Shown here: piece after piece, positions 2,084-47,477 of the stretch
Layout: each line of letters opens with the position of its first letter
Numbering within the stretch: the first letter of the stretch is position 1
Notes under the pieces: model-generated
Databases searched by the model: none
The model's input: the letters and a program-made list of their open reading frames with translations, nothing else
What the model was told of the DNA's origin: nothing
Made by a program: the position numbers and the translations under genes
Source: an uncultured Bacteroidaceae bacterium
GTDB taxonomy: Bacteria > Bacteroidota > Bacteroidia > Bacteroidales > DTU049
DNA: 47,477 nt
Assembly: GCA_964559205.1 (NCBI GenBank)
Contig: CAZLHV010000001.1
Location: 1 to 47,477, forward strand
Direction: 5' to 3'

Positions 2084-3412
2084 TCATGTCATTTCCAGCA
2101 CAAGTGCTTCAGCCGGGAATGACTTCAGAGCAAATCGCTGGTCGATCCGATGTCCGACCAACCAGCAAATGCGGTCGTTGCTGATCACAACAAATGATCT
2201 ATTTCGTTCATAAACAGGTATTTTCAAGTCAGTGAGAAAGTCGCCGATTTTTTTGAAGTTTGTCATTCCGTAAGGAATAAAGCGATCGCCTGGTTGCCAT
2301 TTTCTGACCAAAAGCGGAAAATTTATTTCAGCTGCGCTCAGAAAAGCAAATGAATGAGATGATAATATTTGGGTTTTGTCGTGAACAGTTAGATTTGCAA
2401 CCTTAAGACTGAATGGCAGATGGCTGGAGTCAAGGTCATCCTCGATGTAGTATTGAAGTGTATTTTCGTCGGATGAATCATGAGGTGAAGCGATGAGTCT
2501 TCCACGGTGAGCACTGAGTTTCAAAGATACAGAGTGAAATGAATGAGGGAGATGATGGTCATTCAGTCTGAGAATTGTTTCGATGACTTCAGGGCTGAAG
2601 CCATGAGGAATGAGAAGGTGTTTGAGGAGGACTGAGGAAAACTCATGTTGTTGCAGCCTGATTAAATCGATGCCGTCTGTAAACAGATTGCCGAAGGCTT
2701 CTGCTTCTCTTTCGGCCATAGCCCTGATGAATGGAATGTGTTCTCGAAGATGAGCTGCAGAAATGGCTGCGCGTTTCGAAAACCCGGGAATTTTTTGCTC
2801 GATCACGGGGATGATATCATGACGGATCAGGTTTCTGAGGTATTCGGTTTTTTGATTAGAGCTATCCTCGATAAATGAAATATGATGATGATTTGCAAAT
2901 TGTTCAATTTGCTGGCGTGAGTAGGGGAGGAGCGGGCGAACTATCACCCCTTCTTTTTCCCTGATCCCGCCCAGCGCATCAGGGCTTCCTTTTCGGTTGA
3001 GCGCAAGGATGATGGTTTCTGTCACATCGTCGGAATGATGGGCCGTGCAGATATAATCAAAACCGTGCAAGCCGGCCGCTTCCCTGAAAAAATTGTAGCG
3101 CTGCTGCCGTGCGGTATCCTGAATGTTTCGACCAAGAATCTGAGCCTGATGGAATGTATCGAAAGCAGCTTCATAAAAGTCAACATTCAGTTTTAATGCA
3201 GCCTGGTGAACAAAATCCCGATCACGGAGGCTTTCTCCTCCACGCAGGTTGAAGTTGCAATGTGCAATCCCTGCCGTTAAGCCTTCATTCAGGAATAAGT
3301 GAAGCATAACCATGCTGTCGATTCCCCCCGAAACCGCAAGCAGAAATTTTGCATCTGATGCATCGGGACAAAGCTTTTGGAGGTGATGACGAAAGTCGGC
3401 AAGTTCACTCAT
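2084..3412 (-). CDS. tilS: tRNA(Ile)-lysidine synthetase
   Basis: PP-loop motif SGGIDS near the N-terminus and typical TilS length. The ORF-track start at 3487 is an upstream extension. The ATG at 3412 (MSELADF) overlaps the stop of the upstream gene (ATGAGTGA). Confidence 0.88.
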   Translation of the reverse strand: MSELADFRHHLQKLCPDASDAKFLLAVSGGIDSMVMLHLFLNEGLTAGIAHCNFNLRGGESLRDRDFVHQAALKLNVDFYEAAFDTFHQAQILGRNIQDTARQQRYNFFREAAGLHGFDYICTAHHSDDVTETIILALNRKGSPDALGGIREKEGVIVRPLLPYSRQQIEQFANHHHISFIEDSSNQKTEYLRNLIRHDIIPVIEQKIPGFSKRAAISAAHLREHIPFIRAMAEREAEAFGNLFTDGIDLIRLQQHEFSSVLLKHLLIPHGFSPEVIETILRLNDHHLPHSFHSVSLKLSAHRGRLIASPHDSSDENTLQYYIEDDLDSSHLPFSLKVANLTVHDKTQILSSHSFAFLSAAEINFPLLVRKWQPGDRFIPYGMTNFKKIGDFLTDLKIPVYERNRSFVVISNDRICWLVGHRIDQRFALKSFPAEALVLEMT

Positions 3413-6368
3413 AGCGTATGAAATTGGTAGATATCGATGCCAACCTGACTGAGGTGAGAAAGTGCCTGAGGTTTTCTGCCCTGACATGCATGATCAGGCC
3501 ATCCTCTGCATTGAAGATATAAAGTTGAATATCTTTTCTTTCAGGCGATGAACGAATCATTTCTGTGAGGTTTTCATGGAAAAATACCGCTTCGCCTGCC
3601 GATGGGATCAAGCCGGCAAAGATATGCTGCAAAATGATATTGTTTCTGACAATGCTAAAACAACCAGGTTTATTTCTGACAATGTTTATTTCTGCAGATT
3701 TGACATACACTTCTTCCACCAGATGAGTCATGACAAGCTGATCGGGCAAGGATAACAAATGGCTGGTCCAGTCGCTGGAGTGTGATATTGACAATGCTGA
3801 TGCAATGTTCTGAACAAGAACCTGTGAAACAAAAAGTGGGTCCTGACCTCCGGTTTTCGAATGTGTTGAGGAAATTCCATTCCATTGAATCACCGGGTGC
3901 TGGGGTTTTTCCAACATTCCTTTTAGGGATTCGGCTGAAGTACGGTGCTTGCGCAACAAACCCAGCAATGCTGCTTCCTCGTTGCTGATTACTCCTGAAG
4001 CGAAACCGAGATTGCGGATCATCCATTCTGCAGGCTGCTGCCCGTTGTGAAAGAGCGGATGCAGATCGGAAACGGATATATTTGCCGGAACAACCGCATC
4101 AAGTTTCTGGTTGAAAACCCAGGGTTTTTGCTGAAGTTTCGACAACCATGTAGGCGTGAATGAAATGTCTGCCGAGCGGATATAAGATTCAAAGCGTGCA
4201 AAAGCAGAAGCTTGTTCTTGGGGCAGCAGGCAAAGCATGTTCCACAATGCAGCAGAAGATTGGAGTTCCGGTGCTTTTAAAAAGCTCTCGAGCCCATCGA
4301 GTGTTACATCACAAAAAGTCTCTTTCACAATTGGATGAATATCGGCTTGAATACGCAGATTCGCCTTTTGCTCTTCGCTAAATTCTATCGGGTGTTCAAT
4401 AATGCGAGGGCATTGATGAAGCCCAATCTCAAGAAGAAAACGCAGGGTTGCTTCGCCAGATATACCATGCTTTATGAATGAGCTGATCAATGACGAACGG
4501 ATCAGTAATGCCGGAATATTACGAAAAAAAGCGAGCACCGATGCAGTTTGGATGTACGAGTTCCCAGGTTTGGAAAACAATTTTTCGCCACTTATAGATT
4601 GGGTAACTGGAACAACCTGCATGTCTGCAAGCCTGTGCCGGATTCTGATTTTAAGGTCAGAATCGCTGCTGTTGTATAATTCGAACATATTGAGCCACCA
4701 GTGGTTGGCTTTGTCGGGGTTGAATTTTGCCAGCAATTGTTCCACCATGGGCAGAGCTGGCTGAACTGACGGGATTCCGATGGTTCGCAGAAAATCGAAG
4801 CTTTCACTGTTGTTGATCAGATCGGGATGTACCACCGGAACACCTTTGGCGGGTTTGCCTATGAAAATACAAGCCTGACCATGGTGGTTGAATGGGGCAT
4901 GAAGTATTTTTTTTGAATCAGGAATGCAAGGTTTAAATCGCAAATTGTAATATCTTTCCGAGTGTTTTACATCCCAGTAGCGTGGATACGATGACAGGAG
5001 GCTGAAGAATTGAATGAACCAGCCTGTTTTTTTTGCGGCTAATGCGCCGGGGGTCGATGCCCAATGGAAACAAAAGGTGTCGAGGTCAATCAACTTGAGT
5101 TTGTGTTTGTTGCGCAGGTGGGCAACAAACTCCGGAATCTGGTCATAGTGGTCAGAAATGAAACCGGCGCGGTGAAACACCGATTTCAGCTCTCGTTTGC
5201 TCAGAAGGTTTAGCAGCCTGAAGTCTTCAGCAATTCCAAGTGAACCGATCTGGCATCGTTTCCCGTCAGCATCCATGATTACTTTTTCGTTGGCGATGAA
5301 CTCGCTAAGACATTGCATGATGGTTTCAGAAATCGGATCGCTTGACCCGGCTGTCCAATTGAATAAATTGAAGAAAGATGGATTGATGATGTCCGATCGC
5401 AGCAGGGCATGCAGCATGCCACGGAGCTGGGTTGCCAGATGCTCCAGTAACACAAAATTTTCAGGCGTCAAATCCTGTTGAAAGGGGATGTTTTCGCGGT
5501 TCGGAGTAGTGGTGAATCTGCCATGAACGAAAACAGAATGGGGGATAGTCATCTTGGTTGGGAAATACACAGAGACTGGAGCAGACTGACGCGGTGAAAA
5601 ATCGCCATTGTTGCTTATCGGAAGAGCAATACAAATACGATCCTTTGAGGGATGCCGGTGTATCAGAAAGGTGTCGGTGATCGTTTTGTCTTGATCGAAA
5701 GCCGAAAGTTGGATTCTTCGGAACAATCCATGGTTTTCGCTTGATGCTGCAAGAGTCAGAGAGCGGACTCCGTCGGTGATGTCGATTTGCTGAATCTGGC
5801 TGAGAAAAAGCAGAACGGATGCATTGAGAGAAAAGAGGCGGTTGCTGAGGCTGGTGCGCAACTCTTCGGTGGCACGAATACCCCAAGGCATGCGGATGAG
5901 GGTGCTAAACTCTTTCAGTTGAACGGGACTGACCTTGTGCAATACCTCGTAATCGTGAATACTGTAATGTTTGTCCCCACTATGAATTTCAGGTTGATCG
6001 CAGAAACCAAAAACAGAGCGAAATCCGATGCCGAATTTTCCGATTTTATTGATTCCCGGCTGTCCCGTTTTAGTGGTTGATGCAAAAGTGGTGATGGCCA
6101 TGAGGTCTTCGTCGCTGAAGGGGTCACCATTGTGAAAAAAATCGATGCCGTTTTCCGAAATTTCGATACGAACCATACCGGGTTCACCGGTTTGGGTTTG
6201 GCTCCGTGCAAAAGCGTCTTCGGCATTTTGAAGCAGCTCTTCCACAAAATGAAATGGTTCGGAATATAACATCGACAAAATATGACCGTGACGATTGCCT
6301 TTTATTTTGTTGGCAGCCGCAGCAATTTTACTTTGGGCAATATGTTCATCGAGAGTGAGCCGTTTCAT
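3405..6368 (-). CDS. Sacsin/Hsp90-like GHKL ATPase domain protein, function unknown
   Basis: 987-aa ORF. The N-terminus carries a Bergerat-fold motif set: EELLQNAEDA (N box), HNGDPF (DxGxG-like) and KIGKFGIGFRSVF (G2 box, as in sacsin repeat regions). I recognise no motif in the remaining roughly 750 aa. Confidence 0.65.
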   Translation of the reverse strand: MKRLTLDEHIAQSKIAAAANKIKGNRHGHILSMLYSEPFHFVEELLQNAEDAFARSQTQTGEPGMVRIEISENGIDFFHNGDPFSDEDLMAITTFASTTKTGQPGINKIGKFGIGFRSVFGFCDQPEIHSGDKHYSIHDYEVLHKVSPVQLKEFSTLIRMPWGIRATEELRTSLSNRLFSLNASVLLFLSQIQQIDITDGVRSLTLAASSENHGLFRRIQLSAFDQDKTITDTFLIHRHPSKDRICIALPISNNGDFSPRQSAPVSVYFPTKMTIPHSVFVHGRFTTTPNRENIPFQQDLTPENFVLLEHLATQLRGMLHALLRSDIINPSFFNLFNWTAGSSDPISETIMQCLSEFIANEKVIMDADGKRCQIGSLGIAEDFRLLNLLSKRELKSVFHRAGFISDHYDQIPEFVAHLRNKHKLKLIDLDTFCFHWASTPGALAAKKTGWFIQFFSLLSSYPRYWDVKHSERYYNLRFKPCIPDSKKILHAPFNHHGQACIFIGKPAKGVPVVHPDLINNSESFDFLRTIGIPSVQPALPMVEQLLAKFNPDKANHWWLNMFELYNSSDSDLKIRIRHRLADMQVVPVTQSISGEKLFSKPGNSYIQTASVLAFFRNIPALLIRSSLISSFIKHGISGEATLRFLLEIGLHQCPRIIEHPIEFSEEQKANLRIQADIHPIVKETFCDVTLDGLESFLKAPELQSSAALWNMLCLLPQEQASAFARFESYIRSADISFTPTWLSKLQQKPWVFNQKLDAVVPANISVSDLHPLFHNGQQPAEWMIRNLGFASGVISNEEAALLGLLRKHRTSAESLKGMLEKPQHPVIQWNGISSTHSKTGGQDPLFVSQVLVQNIASALSISHSSDWTSHLLSLPDQLVMTHLVEEVYVKSAEINIVRNKPGCFSIVRNNIILQHIFAGLIPSAGEAVFFHENLTEMIRSSPERKDIQLYIFNAEDGLIMHVRAENLRHFLTSVRLASISTNFIRYE

Positions 6369-8788: not shown

Positions 8789-8876
8789 CGGAGAGGGTGG
8801 GATTCGAACCCACGTACCGCTTTTGGCGATAACACACTTTCCAGGCGTGCCTCTTCAACCACTCGAGCACCTCTCC
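8789..8876 (-). tRNA. tRNA-Ser (anticodon GGA)
   Basis: Minus strand reads GGAGAGGTGCTCGAGTGGTTGAAGAGGCACGCCTGGAAAGTGTGTTATCGCCAAAAGCGGTACGTGGGTTCGAATCCCACCCTCTCCG. It has a 7-bp acceptor stem, anticodon loop CUGGAAA, a long class II variable arm and a GTTCGAATC T-loop. CCA is not encoded. Confidence 0.93.
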
Positions 8877-11640: not shown

Positions 11641-12588
11641 TTATTTGTGGGTATAGAGCCAAATGTCGGGTTTGTTTTCCGTAAGCCGAAGTTCGTTAAG
11701 ATAGGCTACAGCTTCGGTTTTATCGCTGAATTTCTGATAAGCCACTCTAATTCGACCTTCGTCAGGGCTTTCAACAATTTCGGCAGGGAACCCCTTTTTT
11801 TTCAATTCAGCACAAAGACTTTCCGCTTCAGTCATGTTTGTGAAGCTACCGCCGATCACAAAATAATTTGCTGCATCGGATGGTTCAACCGCAGAATCAT
11901 CTGACAGAGTATCAGCTTCCGTCGTCTGGGCGTTTTCGTTCAGCGAATCGTTTGATCCGGGCACGACCCGATCGGTGTTTTCCTTTGTTTTGCTTTCGGT
12001 GGCCCCTTTTTCTGAAGAAAACAAGCCAATCAATTCGTCGGCAAGCGGCTGTACTTTGTCAGGAAAAACGAACCATGATGCCACAACACAAGCCAAAAGA
12101 AATACGACCACAAACAAAAACACCGGTCGTTTCCTGCGTCGGGTAATAGTCGGAGCTGTTCGGGCATGTTTCTTTCCTGCAACAATCTCGGCTGAAAATT
12201 CAGGAAGCCCAAATCCAAACACATCATTGGTTTTTGATTCTTCAAGAACGATGCTGTTGTTTTGCCGGATAAGTTTGCCCATTCCAGGCATAAAGTAATG
12301 GCTTTCTGAGTCGATAGCCTTCAGAATCTGAGATGAGTAGCTCAGCGCGATATCATTTGCTTCGGCAGGACTCAGCCCAAACTCGCTTTGCAAAATGTCG
12401 GCGAGCGTAAGCGCATCGGGGTTGGTTTGTGAAAGAACCGGTTTGGCGACAGGCGGTTGAAAATCGCGACCCATTCTCGACATGTTTGCGGGCTGGGTCA
12501 TGAGCGAGAAAGTCCCGATGTCATGAACACTAATGGCTTTGTATTTGGAGAGCCAGAGGATGAAGTAGTTGTCGTTGACGGATTGCAT
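11641..12588 (-). CDS. SPOR domain-containing protein (N-terminal HU-like domain, TM segment, C-terminal SPOR)
   Basis: 315 aa with a central TM (PVFLFVVVFLLACVVASWFVF). The C-terminal domain YFVIGGSFTNMTEAESLCAELKKKGFPAEIV...RVAYQKFSDKTEA matches a SPOR peptidoglycan-binding fold. Confidence 0.7.
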   Translation of the reverse strand: MQSVNDNYFILWLSKYKAISVHDIGTFSLMTQPANMSRMGRDFQPPVAKPVLSQTNPDALTLADILQSEFGLSPAEANDIALSYSSQILKAIDSESHYFMPGMGKLIRQNNSIVLEESKTNDVFGFGLPEFSAEIVAGKKHARTAPTITRRRKRPVFLFVVVFLLACVVASWFVFPDKVQPLADELIGLFSSEKGATESKTKENTDRVVPGSNDSLNENAQTTEADTLSDDSAVEPSDAANYFVIGGSFTNMTEAESLCAELKKKGFPAEIVESPDEGRIRVAYQKFSDKTEAVAYLNELRLTENKPDIWLYTHK

Positions 12589-37274: not shown

Positions 37275-37443
37275 TTTTCAGATCTTTATTTATCAGACAA
37301 AGTTAATGATTTTAGGTTGTCTGACGATAATTTTGATGTTTGTTATGATTGAGTTAAGCATGACGGTCAGGAAAGCGTTTGGCTGAAGCGAAATGATCTA
37401 TTGGCTGTCATTGCGTAAACAGAATAAAATATATCTTTGGCGT

Positions 37444-39786
37444 ATGAAAAGACCAAATTTTGCTCAAGCTCTCCCCTGGCCACTTATTGGTTCAATCATT
37501 ATCTCTTTAGTGCTGATAATCATATACTTTGGAGATACATTGTTTTCTCTGAATGCTGTATCTTTCGGGGCAAATGGTGATGGAATCAAGTCATATTTTG
37601 CCGCTGATTATTATGTCAGCTACGATGAGTCTTTTCTGATGAGCAATGGACTTAATTATCCTTATGGTGAGCATGTGTTGTTTACCGATAATTTTTTTCC
37701 GGTTTTTTTTCTGATAAAGTTGTTTGCACCCATTTGCGATTTGTCCCCATATACCAATGGGATTATCAATTCAATAATGCTTCTTTCGCTGGTTGCTGCC
37801 ACATATTTCTTGTTTAAAACGCTGCGATTGCTGAGTATCCAGTCGTGGGTAAGCTGTTTGGCAGCACCTGCCAACGCTTTCATGTCGCCTCAGGTGATGC
37901 GGTTTGCTGGTCATTATAGTCTGTCCCTGGTTTTTTATATTCCGTTGCTCATTTATGTTTTGATTTTATTTGGCAGGGAGAAAAAATTGAAATATGCGAT
38001 TCAGGCTGGAATTGCTATTCTGTTGTGCAGTTTGTGCCATATGTATTATCTGATGATGGCAGGAGTTCTTGTGGGAGGCTTTTTGTTCTATTTGATTGTT
38101 TTTGGGGACTTAAAACTACATTGGAAGAAGTCGTTGTATTTTTTCGGAATCAGTGTGGCTGTTCCATTTGTCATGATTTTTTTATTCATGCTATTGACTG
38201 ATCCGGTGTCGGACCGTTCAGCCTACCCCTATGGTTTTCTGGTATATAAAAACGCATGGGAAGGCATTTTTTTATTTGACTCTCAGTCTTCGTGCGAATT
38301 AGTAAATCGTTTTCTTGAACCCGATGTGATTGAGTGGGAGAGCCGGTCTTTTATTGGTCACTCGGCAGTTGCAGGATATTTCCTGTTATATGGCCTTGTG
38401 GCCGGTATTCCTTTTTTGTTTCACAAATCTGTAACTGCTTTTATCATTGCATCGGTTATCGGTGTGCTTTTATATTTGCTCTTCAAGCGACGCAGAAAAA
38501 TTTGGAAACTTACCGGCCAATCCGAAATCGATGCGCTTCTGTGGACGGGTTATGCAGCCATGTTGGTTTCAATGGCATTTCCGGTCAACGTTTTTCCTGA
38601 TCTTTATAATCATATTGGGGTTTTTCGCGAAATCAGAGGGATTGGGCGCATGGCCTGGATATTCTTCTTCGTGGTGAATATTGCCATGCTGTGGTTTGTG
38701 CAGAAGCGGGTTTTGAAGAAATGGCTGCAGATTGCATTGTTTTCTGTGATCATCCTTGTTATGAGCTTTGATCTTCACCGGCTGTGTTCGGCTAACTTGT
38801 CGAAAATTACTCAAAATGAATCCCTGCAAAGCCTTGAAAAACTGGTTGTTGGGTCCCCGCTGTCTGACGAATCTTTTTGCGGGCAGTATCAGGCGATTTT
38901 GACTGTTCCGGCTTATCTGGTTGGAAGCGAGAACACCACGGTTTGGAATCAGGATGAACAAATCCTGATGTTTTCATTGTTTGCTTCACGAACATCAGGC
39001 CTTCCGATTTTGTCCTCGTTTCTTGCAAGAACATCGATTTCACAATCTACCGATAAAGCATCATTCGTGTTTGGACCTTCCAATCATGAACCTCGTTTTT
39101 TTAATGAATTGAATGATGGCCGTGACTTTTTGCTCATTTCAGGACCGGCAAATCGCGAATTATATCAGGGTGAATTACTTCTGCTCAATCATTCCACGCC
39201 GGTATGGGCCGGGCAGGGCTTTGCCTTAAGTAGAATATCTGTGGATACGGTTAAAAGCTTATATCGTCCCGGACCGCGCGATACAAGCGGCCTGTCGTTC
39301 GAACAGCCGATTTTGGTTAATCACTTTACTGATCAGCCCGGTGATGGTTATGGCACCAAGGGACATATTGGCCCTTTTGCATTATCTCATCCCAACCTGG
39401 TTTTGTCAGATTCATTGGTGATGCCATCTGAGTTCAGTTCTGAAGCTGACATTTCGTTTTGGTTTTCAGATATTTACGAAGACGGTCTTGTGAGGGCTTA
39501 TGCCGAATTGTCATTCTACGATGCTCAGGGTAATATGGTGCTATATGACCTGACAAGTCTGGTGAAAACGGTCTGTAAAATAGATGGTCACTGGGCCATG
39601 TCGAAGCGCAGGTTGGTAATTCCTGCCAATGCGGTATTGTTTAATCTGGCCATTGTTCATTATGAACTAAGCATCAACAGTATCATGATTGATGACGTCA
39701 TGATTTCAAAAGCTGGCAGCCATGTGTTTGAAAGCCGGCAGGGAGTTCAAATGATCGATAATCAGTATTTTTTTCTGCAAAAGTAG
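37444..39786 (+). CDS. Large polytopic membrane protein with C-terminal extracytoplasmic domain (possibly a YfhO/ArnT-like glycosyltransferase)
   Basis: About 12 hydrophobic helices in the first 460 aa, followed by a soluble 320-aa domain. The start is at 37444 (MKRPNFAQ) or 37393. The functional assignment is weak. Confidence 0.4.
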   Translation: MKRPNFAQALPWPLIGSIIISLVLIIIYFGDTLFSLNAVSFGANGDGIKSYFAADYYVSYDESFLMSNGLNYPYGEHVLFTDNFFPVFFLIKLFAPICDLSPYTNGIINSIMLLSLVAATYFLFKTLRLLSIQSWVSCLAAPANAFMSPQVMRFAGHYSLSLVFYIPLLIYVLILFGREKKLKYAIQAGIAILLCSLCHMYYLMMAGVLVGGFLFYLIVFGDLKLHWKKSLYFFGISVAVPFVMIFLFMLLTDPVSDRSAYPYGFLVYKNAWEGIFLFDSQSSCELVNRFLEPDVIEWESRSFIGHSAVAGYFLLYGLVAGIPFLFHKSVTAFIIASVIGVLLYLLFKRRRKIWKLTGQSEIDALLWTGYAAMLVSMAFPVNVFPDLYNHIGVFREIRGIGRMAWIFFFVVNIAMLWFVQKRVLKKWLQIALFSVIILVMSFDLHRLCSANLSKITQNESLQSLEKLVVGSPLSDESFCGQYQAILTVPAYLVGSENTTVWNQDEQILMFSLFASRTSGLPILSSFLARTSISQSTDKASFVFGPSNHEPRFFNELNDGRDFLLISGPANRELYQGELLLLNHSTPVWAGQGFALSRISVDTVKSLYRPGPRDTSGLSFEQPILVNHFTDQPGDGYGTKGHIGPFALSHPNLVLSDSLVMPSEFSSEADISFWFSDIYEDGLVRAYAELSFYDAQGNMVLYDLTSLVKTVCKIDGHWAMSKRRLVIPANAVLFNLAIVHYELSINSIMIDDVMISKAGSHVFESRQGVQMIDNQYFFLQK

Positions 39787-44616: not shown

Positions 44617-45201
44617 TCAGAACTCCGATGTAATGTCCATGAGCGGAACTCTTTCGGCTCTGTAAAAACGGGCCTTGTAATAGGGGCTGCTGAGATAATC
44701 GAAGCGCACGCCGCCATTGCATGCGGAATGAATGAATAAGATATCGTTGTCGAGCACCTCGTACACCATTCCAACATGACCAATACCGCTGCGGTAGCGT
44801 TGTGTATTGACAAAAAACAGAATGTCGCCAGGCCGGATGAGACTATCGGGAACCACACGACCTGAGCCGGCCATGTCGGCAGCACTGGGCGAGAGACTCA
44901 CACCAAGATGGGCATACATGGTCATGACATATCCGCTGCAATCGAAGCCAGCCCGGCTTTTACCAGCCCAACGATACGGTACGCCTAGAAAGCTTTTGGC
45001 ATAGGTAAGCAGTTCGGTGGTAAGGCTGTCGCGAATATAGCGGGCTTTTGCAAGGGTATCGTTCTGAATTTGCGTTTTTACCGAGTCATCGACCTGAGCG
45101 TTTGCCGGGGGCGACGAAACCACCACGCCGGTTTGAGCGATGAGGCTCAACGAAGCGGCTACAACAAAGATCATCAAAAGAGAAACAAAAGAAAATCGCA
45201 T
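44617..45201 (-). CDS. C40-family (NlpC/P60) peptidoglycan peptidase
   Basis: 194 aa with a signal peptide, catalytic Cys motif GFDCSGYV, and downstream GDILFF...HVGMV (catalytic His). Confidence 0.85.
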   Translation of the reverse strand: MRFSFVSLLMIFVVAASLSLIAQTGVVVSSPPANAQVDDSVKTQIQNDTLAKARYIRDSLTTELLTYAKSFLGVPYRWAGKSRAGFDCSGYVMTMYAHLGVSLSPSAADMAGSGRVVPDSLIRPGDILFFVNTQRYRSGIGHVGMVYEVLDNDILFIHSACNGGVRFDYLSSPYYKARFYRAERVPLMDITSEF

Positions 45202-45235
45202 CCAAAATTATTTACATTCAACAAGGTGTAAAACA

Positions 45236-45243
45236 CAAAGATA
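45236..45243 (-). promoter_or_regulatory. Candidate -7 promoter box for the peptidase-rsmG unit (TATCTTTG)
   Basis: Exact TAnnTTTG match on the minus strand, 35 nt upstream of the ATG at 45201. Confidence 0.45.
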
Positions 45244-45536
45244 CATATTTTTTTTAAAGCAGGGAGCTTGCAGTTTTTTGTTATGGCACAAAGACCGGAA
45301 CGATTGTGTGAAGATGGATGAGTGGTTTATTTCAATCTTTTTTTTGAGATACTTGATGATTGTGATGTTTCTTCAGTGGATTAAACCAATGAGTTCGGTA
45401 GGTGAATCAATGTTATCGAAAGTTAAAGCAATGATAAGTGAAAGTGTGGCAAAGAGGAGGAGTAAGCAAGAAGCTAAGAGAGGGGAAGACGGTTCCAGAA
45501 GGTGGGAAAGCGATACAAAATGAGGGAGGACTTGGT

Positions 45537-45998
45537 GCGAAGCGCACAATTTCATTCGCGAAATGCACGAAGAAGTGTGCAAAACTGACTTTGAGTTGCG
45601 CGAAGTGGAGTTTGAGTCTCGCGAAAAGGAGTGCACGTGTCGCGAAATGCATTTTTGGTAGTGCAAAATGAAGTTTGAGTTGTGCGGAGCGGAGTTTCAG
45701 TAGTGCAAAAGGCGCGGACAGTTGTGCGAAATGCTGTGACAGCAGTGAAATGTAAAATGTCAGTCATGAAATGCAAAGTGTCGGTTGTGAAATGCAATGT
45801 GTTGGACATGAAATGCAATGTGTCAGCAATGAAATGCGTAGTGTCGGTCATGAAATGCAATGTAACAGTAGTGAAATGCAATGTAACAGTAGTGAAACGC
45901 AATGTGACAGTAGTGAAATGTGCAGTGTCGGTCATGAAATACTGAGTGTCGGTAGTGAAATAAGAAATGACAGTTGTGAGTAAAGAGTTTTGAGTGGA
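45537..45998. repeat. Array of about 22 contiguous 21-bp tandem repeats (no spacers) in two sub-families
   Basis: The right half (45745-45977) has 11 units with consensus (G/A)TGAAATGCAATGTnnC(A/G)GTnn, including two adjacent identical copies (45852-45872 and 45873-45893). The left half (45537-45746) has 10 more diverged units starting GCGAA/GCAAAA. Unit types there recur every 84 bp: GCGAAATGC at 45558, 45642 and 45726, and GAGTTTGAGT-type pairs at 45579/45600 and 45663/45684. A single 19-bp junction at 45726-45745 separates the halves. Degenerate units continue on both flanks. Confidence 0.9.
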
Positions 45999-46225
45999 CA
46001 GTTGTTGGTGGACGATGGCTTTGGCAGAAAGGATCAAACTCAACGATTCCATATCCCCTGGCTCCTTTGTTGTCAGTGGACGATGGAATGGAATTTGTGT
46101 TTGGGGTGTGATTATTTGATTCATTGATTGAATTATGGGGCAGTGGGGGAGTGAGGTTAATAGAATAAATTTGTGAAATTATCTGGTTTTTTTCTTTAAC
46201 GCGATAACTTTTAGTAAACTTTTTC

Positions 46226-46233
46226 TATTTTTG
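46226..46233 (+). promoter_or_regulatory. Candidate plus-strand -7 box (TATTTTTG) upstream of the tracrRNA/cas9 region
   Basis: This is the only exact TAnnTTTG match I found on the plus strand in the 160 nt before the cas9 ATG. A transcript from here would run antisense through the tracrRNA gene. Confidence 0.3.
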
Positions 46234-46239
46234 TTTTAT

Positions 46240-46330
46240 AAAAAAAAGCGATCCCGACATGTCGGGACCACTTTGAATGTTTTCACAACGGAATAATCCT
46301 TATTGTGATTTGCTTAGTTCTGAGGGCAAA
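46240..46330 (-). ncRNA. tracrRNA candidate (anti-repeat, nexus, terminator hairpin), divergent from cas9
   Basis: Minus strand reads ...CCCUCAGAACUAAGCAAAUCACAAU-AAGGAUUAUUCCGUU-GUGAAAACAUUCAAAGUGG-UCCCGACAUGUCGGGA-UCGC-UUUUUUUU. The module order and the AAUAAGG..CCGUU..AAAGUGG..hairpin..U-run mirror the S. pyogenes tracrRNA scaffold. An exact TATATTTG -7 box on the minus strand at 46327-46334 would place the 5' end near 46320. The exact 5' end is uncertain. Confidence 0.75.
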
Positions 46331-46361
46331 TATACAATAAAAAATTAAAAAACAATATACT

Positions 46362-47477
46362 ATGAAAAAAATTCTTGGTTTGGATTTGGGAATAAACTCT
46401 ATTGGATGGGCTTTGGTAAACGAAGCTGAAAACACGAGCGAAAAGTCTTCAATTATAAAACTTGGTGTTAGGGTAAACCCATTAACTGTTGACGAATTAA
46501 TGAATTTTGAAAAAGGCAAAAGCATTACAACGAATGCAGATCGTACTTTGAAAAGAAGTATGCGCCGAAATCTTCAACGATATAAGCTTCGCAGAGAAAA
46601 TCTTATCCAAGTTCTTTTGCAAAACAAGTTTATAACTGAAAACACATTACTCTCTGAAAATGGCAATCACACCACTTTTGAAACATTAAGGCTTAGGTCT
46701 AAAGCCGCAACAGAAAAGATATCGTTAGAACAATTAGGACGAGTTTTTCTAATGATTAATAAAAAACGAGGATATAAGAGCAGTAGAAAAGCCAAAAATC
46801 AGGAGGAAGGCCAGCTGATTGATGGAATGGAAATAGCCATGAAATTGTATAATGAACAACTGACTCCTGGCCAATTTGTGTTTCAAAGCTTGCAGAGTGG
46901 CAACAGGTTCATCCCTGATTTTTATCGCTCGGATCTTCTATCTGAATTTGAAAAAGTTTGGAAGTTTCAAAAGCAATTCTATCCTGAGATTTTAAGTGAT
47001 GATTTCCGTGTTGAAATAGAGGGTAAAGGTTTGCGATTTACTTCTGCAGCTTTTTATAAAAAATACGGGTTCAATACAGCTGAGATGAAAGGCTCTCGAG
47101 ATGAAAAAAAACTGCAATCGTATCATTTGCGTTCTGTAGCCATCAAATCAAAGCTGACAAAAGAAGAAGTTGCTTTTGTTTTGGCAGAAATTAACAATAA
47201 TCTTAATGCATCGAGTGGATACTTAGGCTCTATTAGTGACAGAAGCAAAGAGCTCTACTTCAATAAAAAAACAGTTGGAGAGTATCTTATGGCGCAATTA
47301 GATACGAACCCACACACAAAGCTCAAAAACCAAGTTTTCTATCGCCAAGATTATTTGGATGAATTTGATAAAATATGGGAGACTCAAAAATCATTTCACG
47401 ATGTATTGACTCCAGAACTTAAAAAAGAAATAAGAGACATTATAATATTCTATCAACGTCGATTAAAAAGCCAGAAA
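46362..47477 (+). CDS. cas9: CRISPR-associated endonuclease Cas9, N-terminal 372 codons (truncated by the window end)
   Basis: Hand translation gives MKKILGLDLGINSIGWALVNEAEN... (RuvC-I motif with catalytic Asp8). It also shows the Arg-rich bridge helix RTLKRSMRRNLQRYKLRRENL, MINKKRGYKSS and IIFYQRRLKSQK. The frame is open for all 1116 nt with an in-frame stop at 46338-46340 upstream. It is not in the ORF track because no stop codon is reached. Confidence 0.9.
   Translation, partial: MKKILGLDLGINSIGWALVNEAENTSEKSSIIKLGVRVNPLTVDELMNFEKGKSITTNADRTLKRSMRRNLQRYKLRRENLIQVLLQNKFITENTLLSENGNHTTFETLRLRSKAATEKISLEQLGRVFLMINKKRGYKSSRKAKNQEEGQLIDGMEIAMKLYNEQLTPGQFVFQSLQSGNRFIPDFYRSDLLSEFEKVWKFQKQFYPEILSDDFRVEIEGKGLRFTSAAFYKKYGFNTAEMKGSRDEKKLQSYHLRSVAIKSKLTKEEVAFVLAEINNNLNASSGYLGSISDRSKELYFNKKTVGEYLMAQLDTNPHTKLKNQVFYRQDYLDEFDKIWETQKSFHDVLTPELKKEIRDIIIFYQRRLKSQK

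Follow-up and report, generated by a model that had tools for sequence, protein, structure and literature searches.

The start of a type II-C-like cas9 gene, with a tracrRNA gene upstream, at the end of a Bacteroidia contig

The 47,477-bp contig CAZLHV010000001.1, which by its genes comes from an uncultured Bacteroidia lineage, ends inside an open reading frame (ORF) that resembles the beginning of a cas9 gene. This raises three questions: whether the frame is the start of a genuine Cas9 of a clustered regularly interspaced short palindromic repeats (CRISPR) system, whether the gene continues intact past the contig end, and where the RNAs and genes that accompany cas9 in related bacteria are to be found. 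The window analysed here is the whole contig, and the sequence therefore stops at 47477; the gene is thus cut by the contig end, not by mutation. The reading proposed, to which a probability of about 85% is given, is that the window carries the 5' third of a chromosomal type II-C cas9 gene, with a gene for the trans-activating CRISPR RNA (tracrRNA) upstream, and that cas9 continues past the contig end.

From the ATG at 46362 the frame runs for 372 codons without a stop, a stretch that takes in RuvC-I, the bridge helix and the beginning of the recognition (REC) lobe. It is missing from the ORF track because the ORF lister leaves out ORFs that run off their source. The product begins MKKILGLDLGINSIGWA, an MKKILGLDLG start that holds the RuvC-I motif; the catalytic Asp of this motif is residue 8 (codon 46383-46385), and the motif is kept in an alignment of 26 relatives. 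The Arg-rich stretch RTLKRSMRRNLQRYKLRR follows RuvC-I, residues 61-81 making up the Arg-rich helix RTLKRSMRRNLQRYKLRRENL, and the region after the helix aligns to the helical recognition lobe of Cas9. The NCBIfam Cas9 profile TIGR01865 matches at 161.2 bits against a curated cutoff of 100 (profile positions 2-232), and four PADLOC Cas9 models match with E = 6e-23 to 3e-17; in a Pfam scan of the fragment no N-terminal Cas9 model fired. Every solved-structure match at E <= 0.01 is a II-C enzyme (CbCas9 and the Geo- and Nme-type proteins), with no II-A or II-B enzyme at that level, and the relatives in the genome collection, all Bacteroidota, encode Cas9 proteins of 1338-1519 aa. An initial annotation of this DNA, made from the sequence alone, had read a Cas9 N-terminus in the open frame, with RuvC-I, an arginine-rich bridge helix and the start of the REC lobe, and had likened it to the large type II-C-like Cas9 proteins of Bacteroidota. 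The profile match that it proposed as a check, the motifs in the translation with their alignment to solved II-C structures, and the size and origin of the close relatives all bear this out. The coordinates of these and the other features at this end of the window are collected in Table 1.

Table 1. Features at the cas9 end of the window, with positions counted from its first nucleotide
Feature	Position	Strand	Basis
cas9 5' part, 1,116 nt / 372 codons	46362..47477	+	open frame, TIGR01865, PADLOC Cas9, homologue identity
RuvC-I motif ILGLDLGINSIGWA	46371..46412	+	translation; aligned to the start of CbCas9, GeoCas9 and Nme-type Cas9
Arg-rich bridge helix NADRTLKRSMRRNLQRYKLRRENLIQVL, residues ~58-85	46533..46616	+	translation; alignment to the CbCas9 bridge helix region
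tracrRNA gene (predicted)	46242..46329	-	covariance model, synteny in relatives, fold energy
Promoter box TATATTTG, match to Bacteroidetes -7 consensus TAnnTTTG	46327..46334	-	sequence; directly upstream of anti-repeat
Anti-repeat CCCTCAGAACTAAGCAAATCACAA	46303..46326	-	complementarity of the same segment to local repeats in relatives
Nexus-like hairpin AAGGATTATTCC	46290..46301	-	invariant alignment columns; paired in fold
tracrRNA intrinsic terminator: 13-bp hairpin 46274-46245, then T-run	46240..46274	-	terminator scan and fold
G+C change point	46157 (support interval 45159-46170)		two-segment likelihood scan, log-likelihood ratio 26; ~45% left, ~35% right

A protein search with the fragment as query gave matches that were 60-77% identical, none longer than 646 aa and several of them on long contigs. 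This ceiling is an artefact of the choice of candidates for the fragment query and not biology. When the query was a chimera of the window's 372 aa and the remainder of the protein from the related locus L005, the search found hundreds of Bacteroidota Cas9 proteins of 1371-1412 aa with the Pfam domains HNH_4 and RuvC_III, to which the fragment is 60-80% identical. That the Cas9 might naturally be short or split (~635 aa) was ruled out on these lengths and on the C-termini of the fragment-query matches, which fall at scattered alignment positions. Among the databases searched, the closest Cas9 is 80% identical over the N-terminal 372 aa, and no match in the genome collection is above 75% identity; an exact 40-mer of the window was not found in the metagenome collection, and three neighbouring proteins had no exact record. 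The fragment thus reads as the genuine start of a Cas9 of the Bacteroidota type II-C kind, a new ortholog of a well-known family.

A tracrRNA gene, on which the initial annotation had not remarked, lies inside the window in the 33-40 nt-distant position upstream of cas9 and in the opposite orientation. The predicted transcript runs from ~46322 down to 46240 (~83 nt), away from cas9. A covariance model built from 22 relatives only, with the window left out, matches over its full length at 46329-46242 on the minus strand (74.2 bits, E = 8e-14), and the predicted RNA has a fold energy of -28.5 kcal/mol (z = -5.15). Nearly every related locus examined has the same element on the opposite strand, at a distance of 33-200 nt upstream of cas9. 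An Rfam search of the tracrRNA gave no match at the gathering score, only sub-threshold noise.

By its sequence, this RNA gene has every usual element: the promoter box comes first, then the anti-repeat, the nexus-like hairpin and, last, the terminator. The consensus for the Bacteroidetes -7 promoter element is TAnnTTTG, as cited in PMC10309648; the box TATATTTG probably serves as the tracrRNA promoter, and boxes like it are found at the same place in most relatives. The segment that corresponds to the anti-repeat pairs with the local repeat in 14 array-bearing relatives, with duplex energies of -21 to -35 kcal/mol, and anti-repeat and repeat co-vary among relatives (for example L009, L013 and L025). 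By analogy, the CRISPR repeat of the window locus is predicted to begin, in the sense of the CRISPR RNA (crRNA), with GTTGTGATTTGCTT(T)AGTTCTGAGG. The core that follows the anti-repeat, TAAGGATTATTCCGTTGTGAAAACATT, recurs at this place and in this orientation in almost all of the related loci that were examined. Within the 37-nt core of the family lies the nexus-like hairpin, whose flanking AAT and GTTGTGAAAACA are also invariant and which resembles the nexus AAGGCUAGUCCG of the SpCas9 tracrRNA. At the terminator site the relatives have hairpins of differing sequence, each followed by a T-run.

The way in which these parts would work together is taken from the family. Transcription of the tracrRNA would start just after the TAnnTTTG box. 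An anti-repeat of ~22 nt would pair with the 5' part of a long CRISPR repeat, probably of 46-47 nt, whilst the nexus and terminator hairpins of the tracrRNA would be held by Cas9. The resulting crRNA:tracrRNA:Cas9 complex would then cut foreign DNA flanked by a protospacer adjacent motif (PAM) through the RuvC (Asp8) and HNH active sites.

Whether cas9 continues intact can be approached through a public metagenome run, X1, which contains 100% of the sampled words of positions 45000-47477. Its k=31 Logan contigs were compared with the loci of relatives at 80% DNA likeness. One contig of 37,469 bp (depth 25.6) ends at 46308, and another of 14,960 bp (depth 25.2) covers 46286-47477 and extends 13,768 bp past the window end. 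On this second contig, four segments beyond the window can be anchored to relatives: at codons 674-681, the RuvC-II segment KPDEI..E.AR (via L018); at codons 922-952, the RuvC-III segment DHRHHAMDA (via L006); at codons 1153-1165 (via L018); and at codons 1274-1299 in the PAM-interacting domain, with the overhang LNPENYHLIS (via L009). In the RuvC-II and RuvC-III segments the DNA is 80-100% like that of the relatives, the residues given being deduced from this likeness and not read. All eight anchors, four of them inside the window, are in the codon phase of the ATG, and the motif positions agree with those of the nearest full-length relatives, whose proteins of 1375-1383 aa have them at 679, 932 and 1307. 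Two further matches were set aside: a third L006 anchor (21 nt with a G+C-rich overhang) was judged unreliable, and a 36-nt match of a 26.8x contig to L008 falls in an AT-rich spacer after cas2 and was taken as chance.

The anchors indicate that in the source population the reading frame of cas9 extends as far as codon ~1300 or beyond. Because they share the phase of the ATG and sit at the positions of the relatives, the gene is most likely full length, encoding ~1,375-1,385 aa and ending near the window-equivalent position 50,500. The RuvC-II and RuvC-III anchors are ~253 codons apart, as in the HNH-bearing relatives, a spacing that suggests that HNH is present. The gene would presumably have an intact HNH domain and encode an active Cas9.

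The cas9 could also be a decaying pseudogene, with an intact N-terminus and a break further on, and the family does contain broken copies. In L002 (Mucilaginibacter gossypii, FNCG01000007.1) an in-frame TAA at 11914 follows ...AGYNHSS in cas9, with the frame continuing into RuvC-II, and in L001 a cas9 frameshift lies at about 11850, ~25 codons upstream of the spot that matches the L002 stop; these two broken genes are probably pseudogenes or sequencing errors. The cas9 genes of L024 and L025 also have frameshifts or early stops, and past 47477 the window locus is covered by anchors. However, the 372 codons in the window are clean and the tracrRNA is intact, and the four downstream anchors, reaching codon ~1300, keep the phase of the ATG, their spacing differing from that in relatives by whole codons only. 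An early stop or frameshift past the contig end had been named in the initial annotation as the sign of a degraded gene, and neither is seen along these anchors. Decay of this cas9 is therefore considered improbable, and a continuous, full-length gene remains the preferred reading.

The continuity of the locus itself depends on one short stretch. The 37-mer at 46279-46315, part of the tracrRNA core, occurs unchanged in several members of the same metagenome community, and it is for this reason that the public k=31 contigs break there and that the depth rises to 42.9. Such a shared core could have joined the cas9 of another organism to the chromosomal genes on the left in an assembly chimera, which would also explain the step in G+C content. 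The public contigs break exactly at the 37-mer, other contigs (depths 7.75 and 4.4) enter it, and the G+C change point at 46157 is only ~120 nt to its left. Against this, the depths on the two sides of the join are 25.6 and 25.2 in X1 and 5.8 and 4.8 in a second sample, X2; they differ from those of the other branches, and their agreement in both samples indicates the same genome on both sides. The left contig already holds the 3' half of a tracrRNA gene and must for that reason border on a cas9 locus. The fall in G+C, moreover, begins before the shared 37-mer is reached, and relatives show the same drop at cas9. A chimera is thus a very remote prospect, and cas9 is taken to belong to the chromosome that carries the rest of the window.

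The relatives provide the layout against which the window can be compared. In most of those in the genome collection, cas1 and cas2 come after cas9, and then an array whose period is 76-77 nt (a 46-47-nt repeat). In some, one small gene stands between cas9 and cas1; csn2 and cas4 are absent from the loci of the relatives. The array begins 1.3-2.9 kb after cas9, though some relatives, such as L006 and L022, have no array close by. On the cas9 strand the repeat ends ...GAAAGCAAwTCACAAC, and the crRNA strand in the relatives is therefore opposite to cas9. By its matches to solved structures and its nearest relatives, the Cas9 fragment groups with the II-C proteins, and by analogy with its relatives this particular locus is probably of subtype II-C.

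Two observations on these relatives concern their repeats and small genes. In the arrays of L026, L028 and L008, some 47-nt repeats contain, in the crRNA sense, TATCTTTG, which matches the TAnnTTTG box; promoters carried by the repeats have been reported for II-C arrays of Flavobacterium (PMC10309648), with which this agrees. In the closest full-length relatives an extra gene separates cas9 from cas1; it encodes 217 aa of no family in L042 (14153-14806) and 242 aa with DUF6261 in L044 (14515-15243). Neither had a match among PDB chains, so that they give no indication of a PcrIIC1 partner; they are candidate accessory genes of this Cas9 clade.

The known systems closest to this arrangement are the II-C loci of other Bacteroidota, namely those of Flavobacterium psychrophilum (Fp1Cas9 and Fp2Cas9), F. 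columnare and Riemerella anatipestifer (PMC10309648, PMC5006608). The F. psychrophilum locus has the order tracrRNA-cas9-cas1-cas2-array with TAnnTTTG promoters (PMC10309648), and in Riemerella the anti-repeat TGAAAGCAATTCACAA lies upstream of cas9 (PMC5006608). The window locus is like these in having a tracrRNA gene followed by cas9, in the MKKILGLDLG N-terminus, in the TAnnTTTG box, in the anti-repeat core AGCAAwTCACAA (seen in the Riemerella TGAAAGCAATTCACAA) and in a cas9 with a G+C content below that of its host, exchange between genomes being documented for this group. As regards the relatives of the window locus, the likeness extends to repeats of 46-47 nt and a crRNA strand opposite to cas9. 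The window locus differs in that, over the N-terminal 372 aa, its Cas9 does not exceed 80% identity to any Cas9 in the databases that were searched, that its host is an uncultured, Bacteroidales-like organism, and that cas1, cas2 and an array are not found in the window and are probably not in their usual place.

Amongst solved structures the best match is CbCas9 (E = 1.4e-20), the type II-C enzyme of Chryseobacterium, for which PcrIIC1 acts as accessory protein (PDB 8iyq, 8wmh; Zhang et al. 2024, as cited in PMC13153721 and PMC12669027). With about 1,440 aa it too is among the large Cas9 proteins of Bacteroidota, and RuvC-I and the bridge helix align over residues 2-94; however, the REC lobe aligns only in patches, which places CbCas9 in a different clade. 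The II-C Cas9 proteins of Neisseria meningitidis, Geobacillus and Campylobacter are of the same subtype by sequence match (E = 3.5e-14 to 2e-7) but are ~300 aa shorter (about 1,000-1,090 aa), with 36-nt repeats and another tracrRNA scaffold. In these systems, too, the crRNAs are encoded on the strand opposite to cas9, and promoters within the repeats have been described.

As the initial annotation had stated, the adaptation genes and the array lie outside the window: no cas1, cas2 or CRISPR array was found anywhere in its 47,477 bp. The contigs of X1 make it doubtful that they follow cas9 in the usual way. Logan contigs break at CRISPR repeats, as is shown by that of the close relative L045, which extends from the tracrRNA core precisely as far as the first repeat. 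The 14,960-bp contig of X1 is unbroken for ~10.7 kb past the predicted cas9 stop, so that a normal array directly after cas9-cas1-cas2 is unlikely. When the cas1 genes of four relatives were compared with X1 at 80% DNA likeness, they caught low-depth contigs of other organisms and never the 25x contig; neither a single repeat of L009 nor the window anti-repeat at 80% likeness caught array contigs. A multi-repeat array is presumably absent from the ~10.7 kb after cas9, and the adaptation genes and array are probably not in the canonical place directly after it. The initial annotation had named the lack of an array or of cas1/cas2 on the extended contig as another sign of a degraded gene; on this count the evidence leans towards a non-canonical layout. 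The array may be at the far end of the contig, elsewhere in the genome, or absent.

These results bear on the possibility that cas9 and its tracrRNA gene form a module with no adaptation module or array beside it, either an orphan or one separated from cas1-cas2-array by at least 10 kb, in which cas9 itself may be intact. The 46 kb upstream without cas1, cas2 or array are in its favour, as are the failure of the four cas1 genes to catch the 25x contig and the unbroken ~10.7 kb where relatives would have an array at 1.3-2.9 kb and where the L045 contig stops at its first repeat. On the other hand, the tracrRNA is fully intact, which argues for a working crRNA partner somewhere, a diverged cas1 could escape the 80% DNA threshold, and the first repeat may lie at the contig's far end; relatives such as L006 and L022, moreover, also lack a nearby array. 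Such an isolated module is a possibility to be taken seriously, though on this evidence a doubtful one. The more specific proposal that cas9 and tracrRNA have been uncoupled from the adaptation module, with other content filling the following 10.7 kb, is put forward a little more tentatively still.

The reading of the locus as a type II-C cas9 that continues past the contig end must be set against several points that weigh on the other side. Beyond 47477 there are anchors only and no base-by-base sequence, so that a stop or damage to HNH is possible, and no anchor falls within the HNH domain. The housekeeping and cas9 parts are joined through a 37-nt core common to several organisms. The assignment of this locus to II-C is by analogy only. 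Finally, the usual cas9-cas1-cas2-array order is made unlikely by the repeat-free ~10.7 kb, and the cas1 genes of relatives did not catch the 25x contig of X1.

The composition of cas9 sets it apart from the rest of the window. The fragment has 34.9% G+C, with 30.9% at third codon positions (GC3), whilst positions 1-45201 have 45.1 ± 2.4% in segments of the same size, none of 882 being as low as cas9 (z = -4.3). This is the composition that the initial annotation had described from a hand count: the first 60 nt, put at about one-third G+C, have exactly 33.3%, and the genes to the left are indeed richer, six neighbours having GC3 values of 44-55%. From this it had suggested a horizontally acquired island that begins near 46100. 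The drop and its boundary stand (Table 1); recent transfer is unproven. A cas9 that falls 3 or more G+C points short of its flank is also seen in 11 of 14 related loci; low G+C thus characterises this cas9 clade and is weak support for recent transfer. Among II-C loci, cas9 exchange has been documented (PMC12669027, PMC10309648), and a foreign origin of the cas9 locus is plausible. The searches found no near relative of the host; the best match to the adjacent NlpC/P60 gene in metagenome contigs is 44% identical, and no empty site was available for comparison of an insertion. No integrase or tRNA gene was found at the left border, the sole tRNA gene in the window being at 8789-8876.

The rest of the window holds ordinary chromosomal genes, including those for DsbD, TilS, YidC, CTP synthase, RarA, RsmG and an NlpC/P60 hydrolase. 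The CTP synthase shares 86% identity with its counterpart in ‘Bacteroidetes bacterium GWF2_43_63’ and 80% with the one encoded by a Marinilabiliales metagenome-assembled genome. An ORF of 987 aa (3405-6368, minus strand) matches the PADLOC TmtA models of the candidate defence system Tiamat (E = 1e-42) and Pfam Sacsin; judged by these matches, the contig would carry with it a second gene linked to defence, at a distance of 40 kb from cas9. An ORF of 797 aa (37393-39786, plus strand) has only a sub-threshold match to the SpoIISA toxin (22 bits against a cutoff of 27) and no PADLOC match.

Between the NlpC/P60 gene and the tracrRNA terminator, at 45556-45996, lies a tandem array of ~21 units of 21 bp. 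The units keep a strict register without insertions or deletions, and the consensus of the later ones is RTGAAATGCAATGTGNCAGTA. The plus strand is G-rich and C-poor, with 148 G and 59 C. The array was not found in related loci. It has no spacers and was rejected as a CRISPR array; it was also rejected as a coding repeat, its variation showing no three-base periodicity and the ORFs across it having no family match. Two turns of the DNA helix take up 21 bp, and one idea is that the array is a phased protein binding site.

For the annotation of such genomes, the value of this locus is that a gene at a contig end, missed by the ORF track, is a real Cas9, and that its tracrRNA gene can be located with single-base precision and used to predict how the CRISPR repeat of the locus begins (its first ~25 nt). 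The tracrRNA core is also a predictable assembly break point beside the cas9 genes of Bacteroidota. The protein adds one more ortholog to a large Bacteroidota II-C group and introduces no new principle. One point that could raise its interest is the long array-free stretch after cas9 in the source population. If cas9 and the tracrRNA gene are uncoupled from the adaptation module, the following 10.7 kb could hold new accessory genes, or the locus could provide a stand-alone Cas9 that relies on a distant array.

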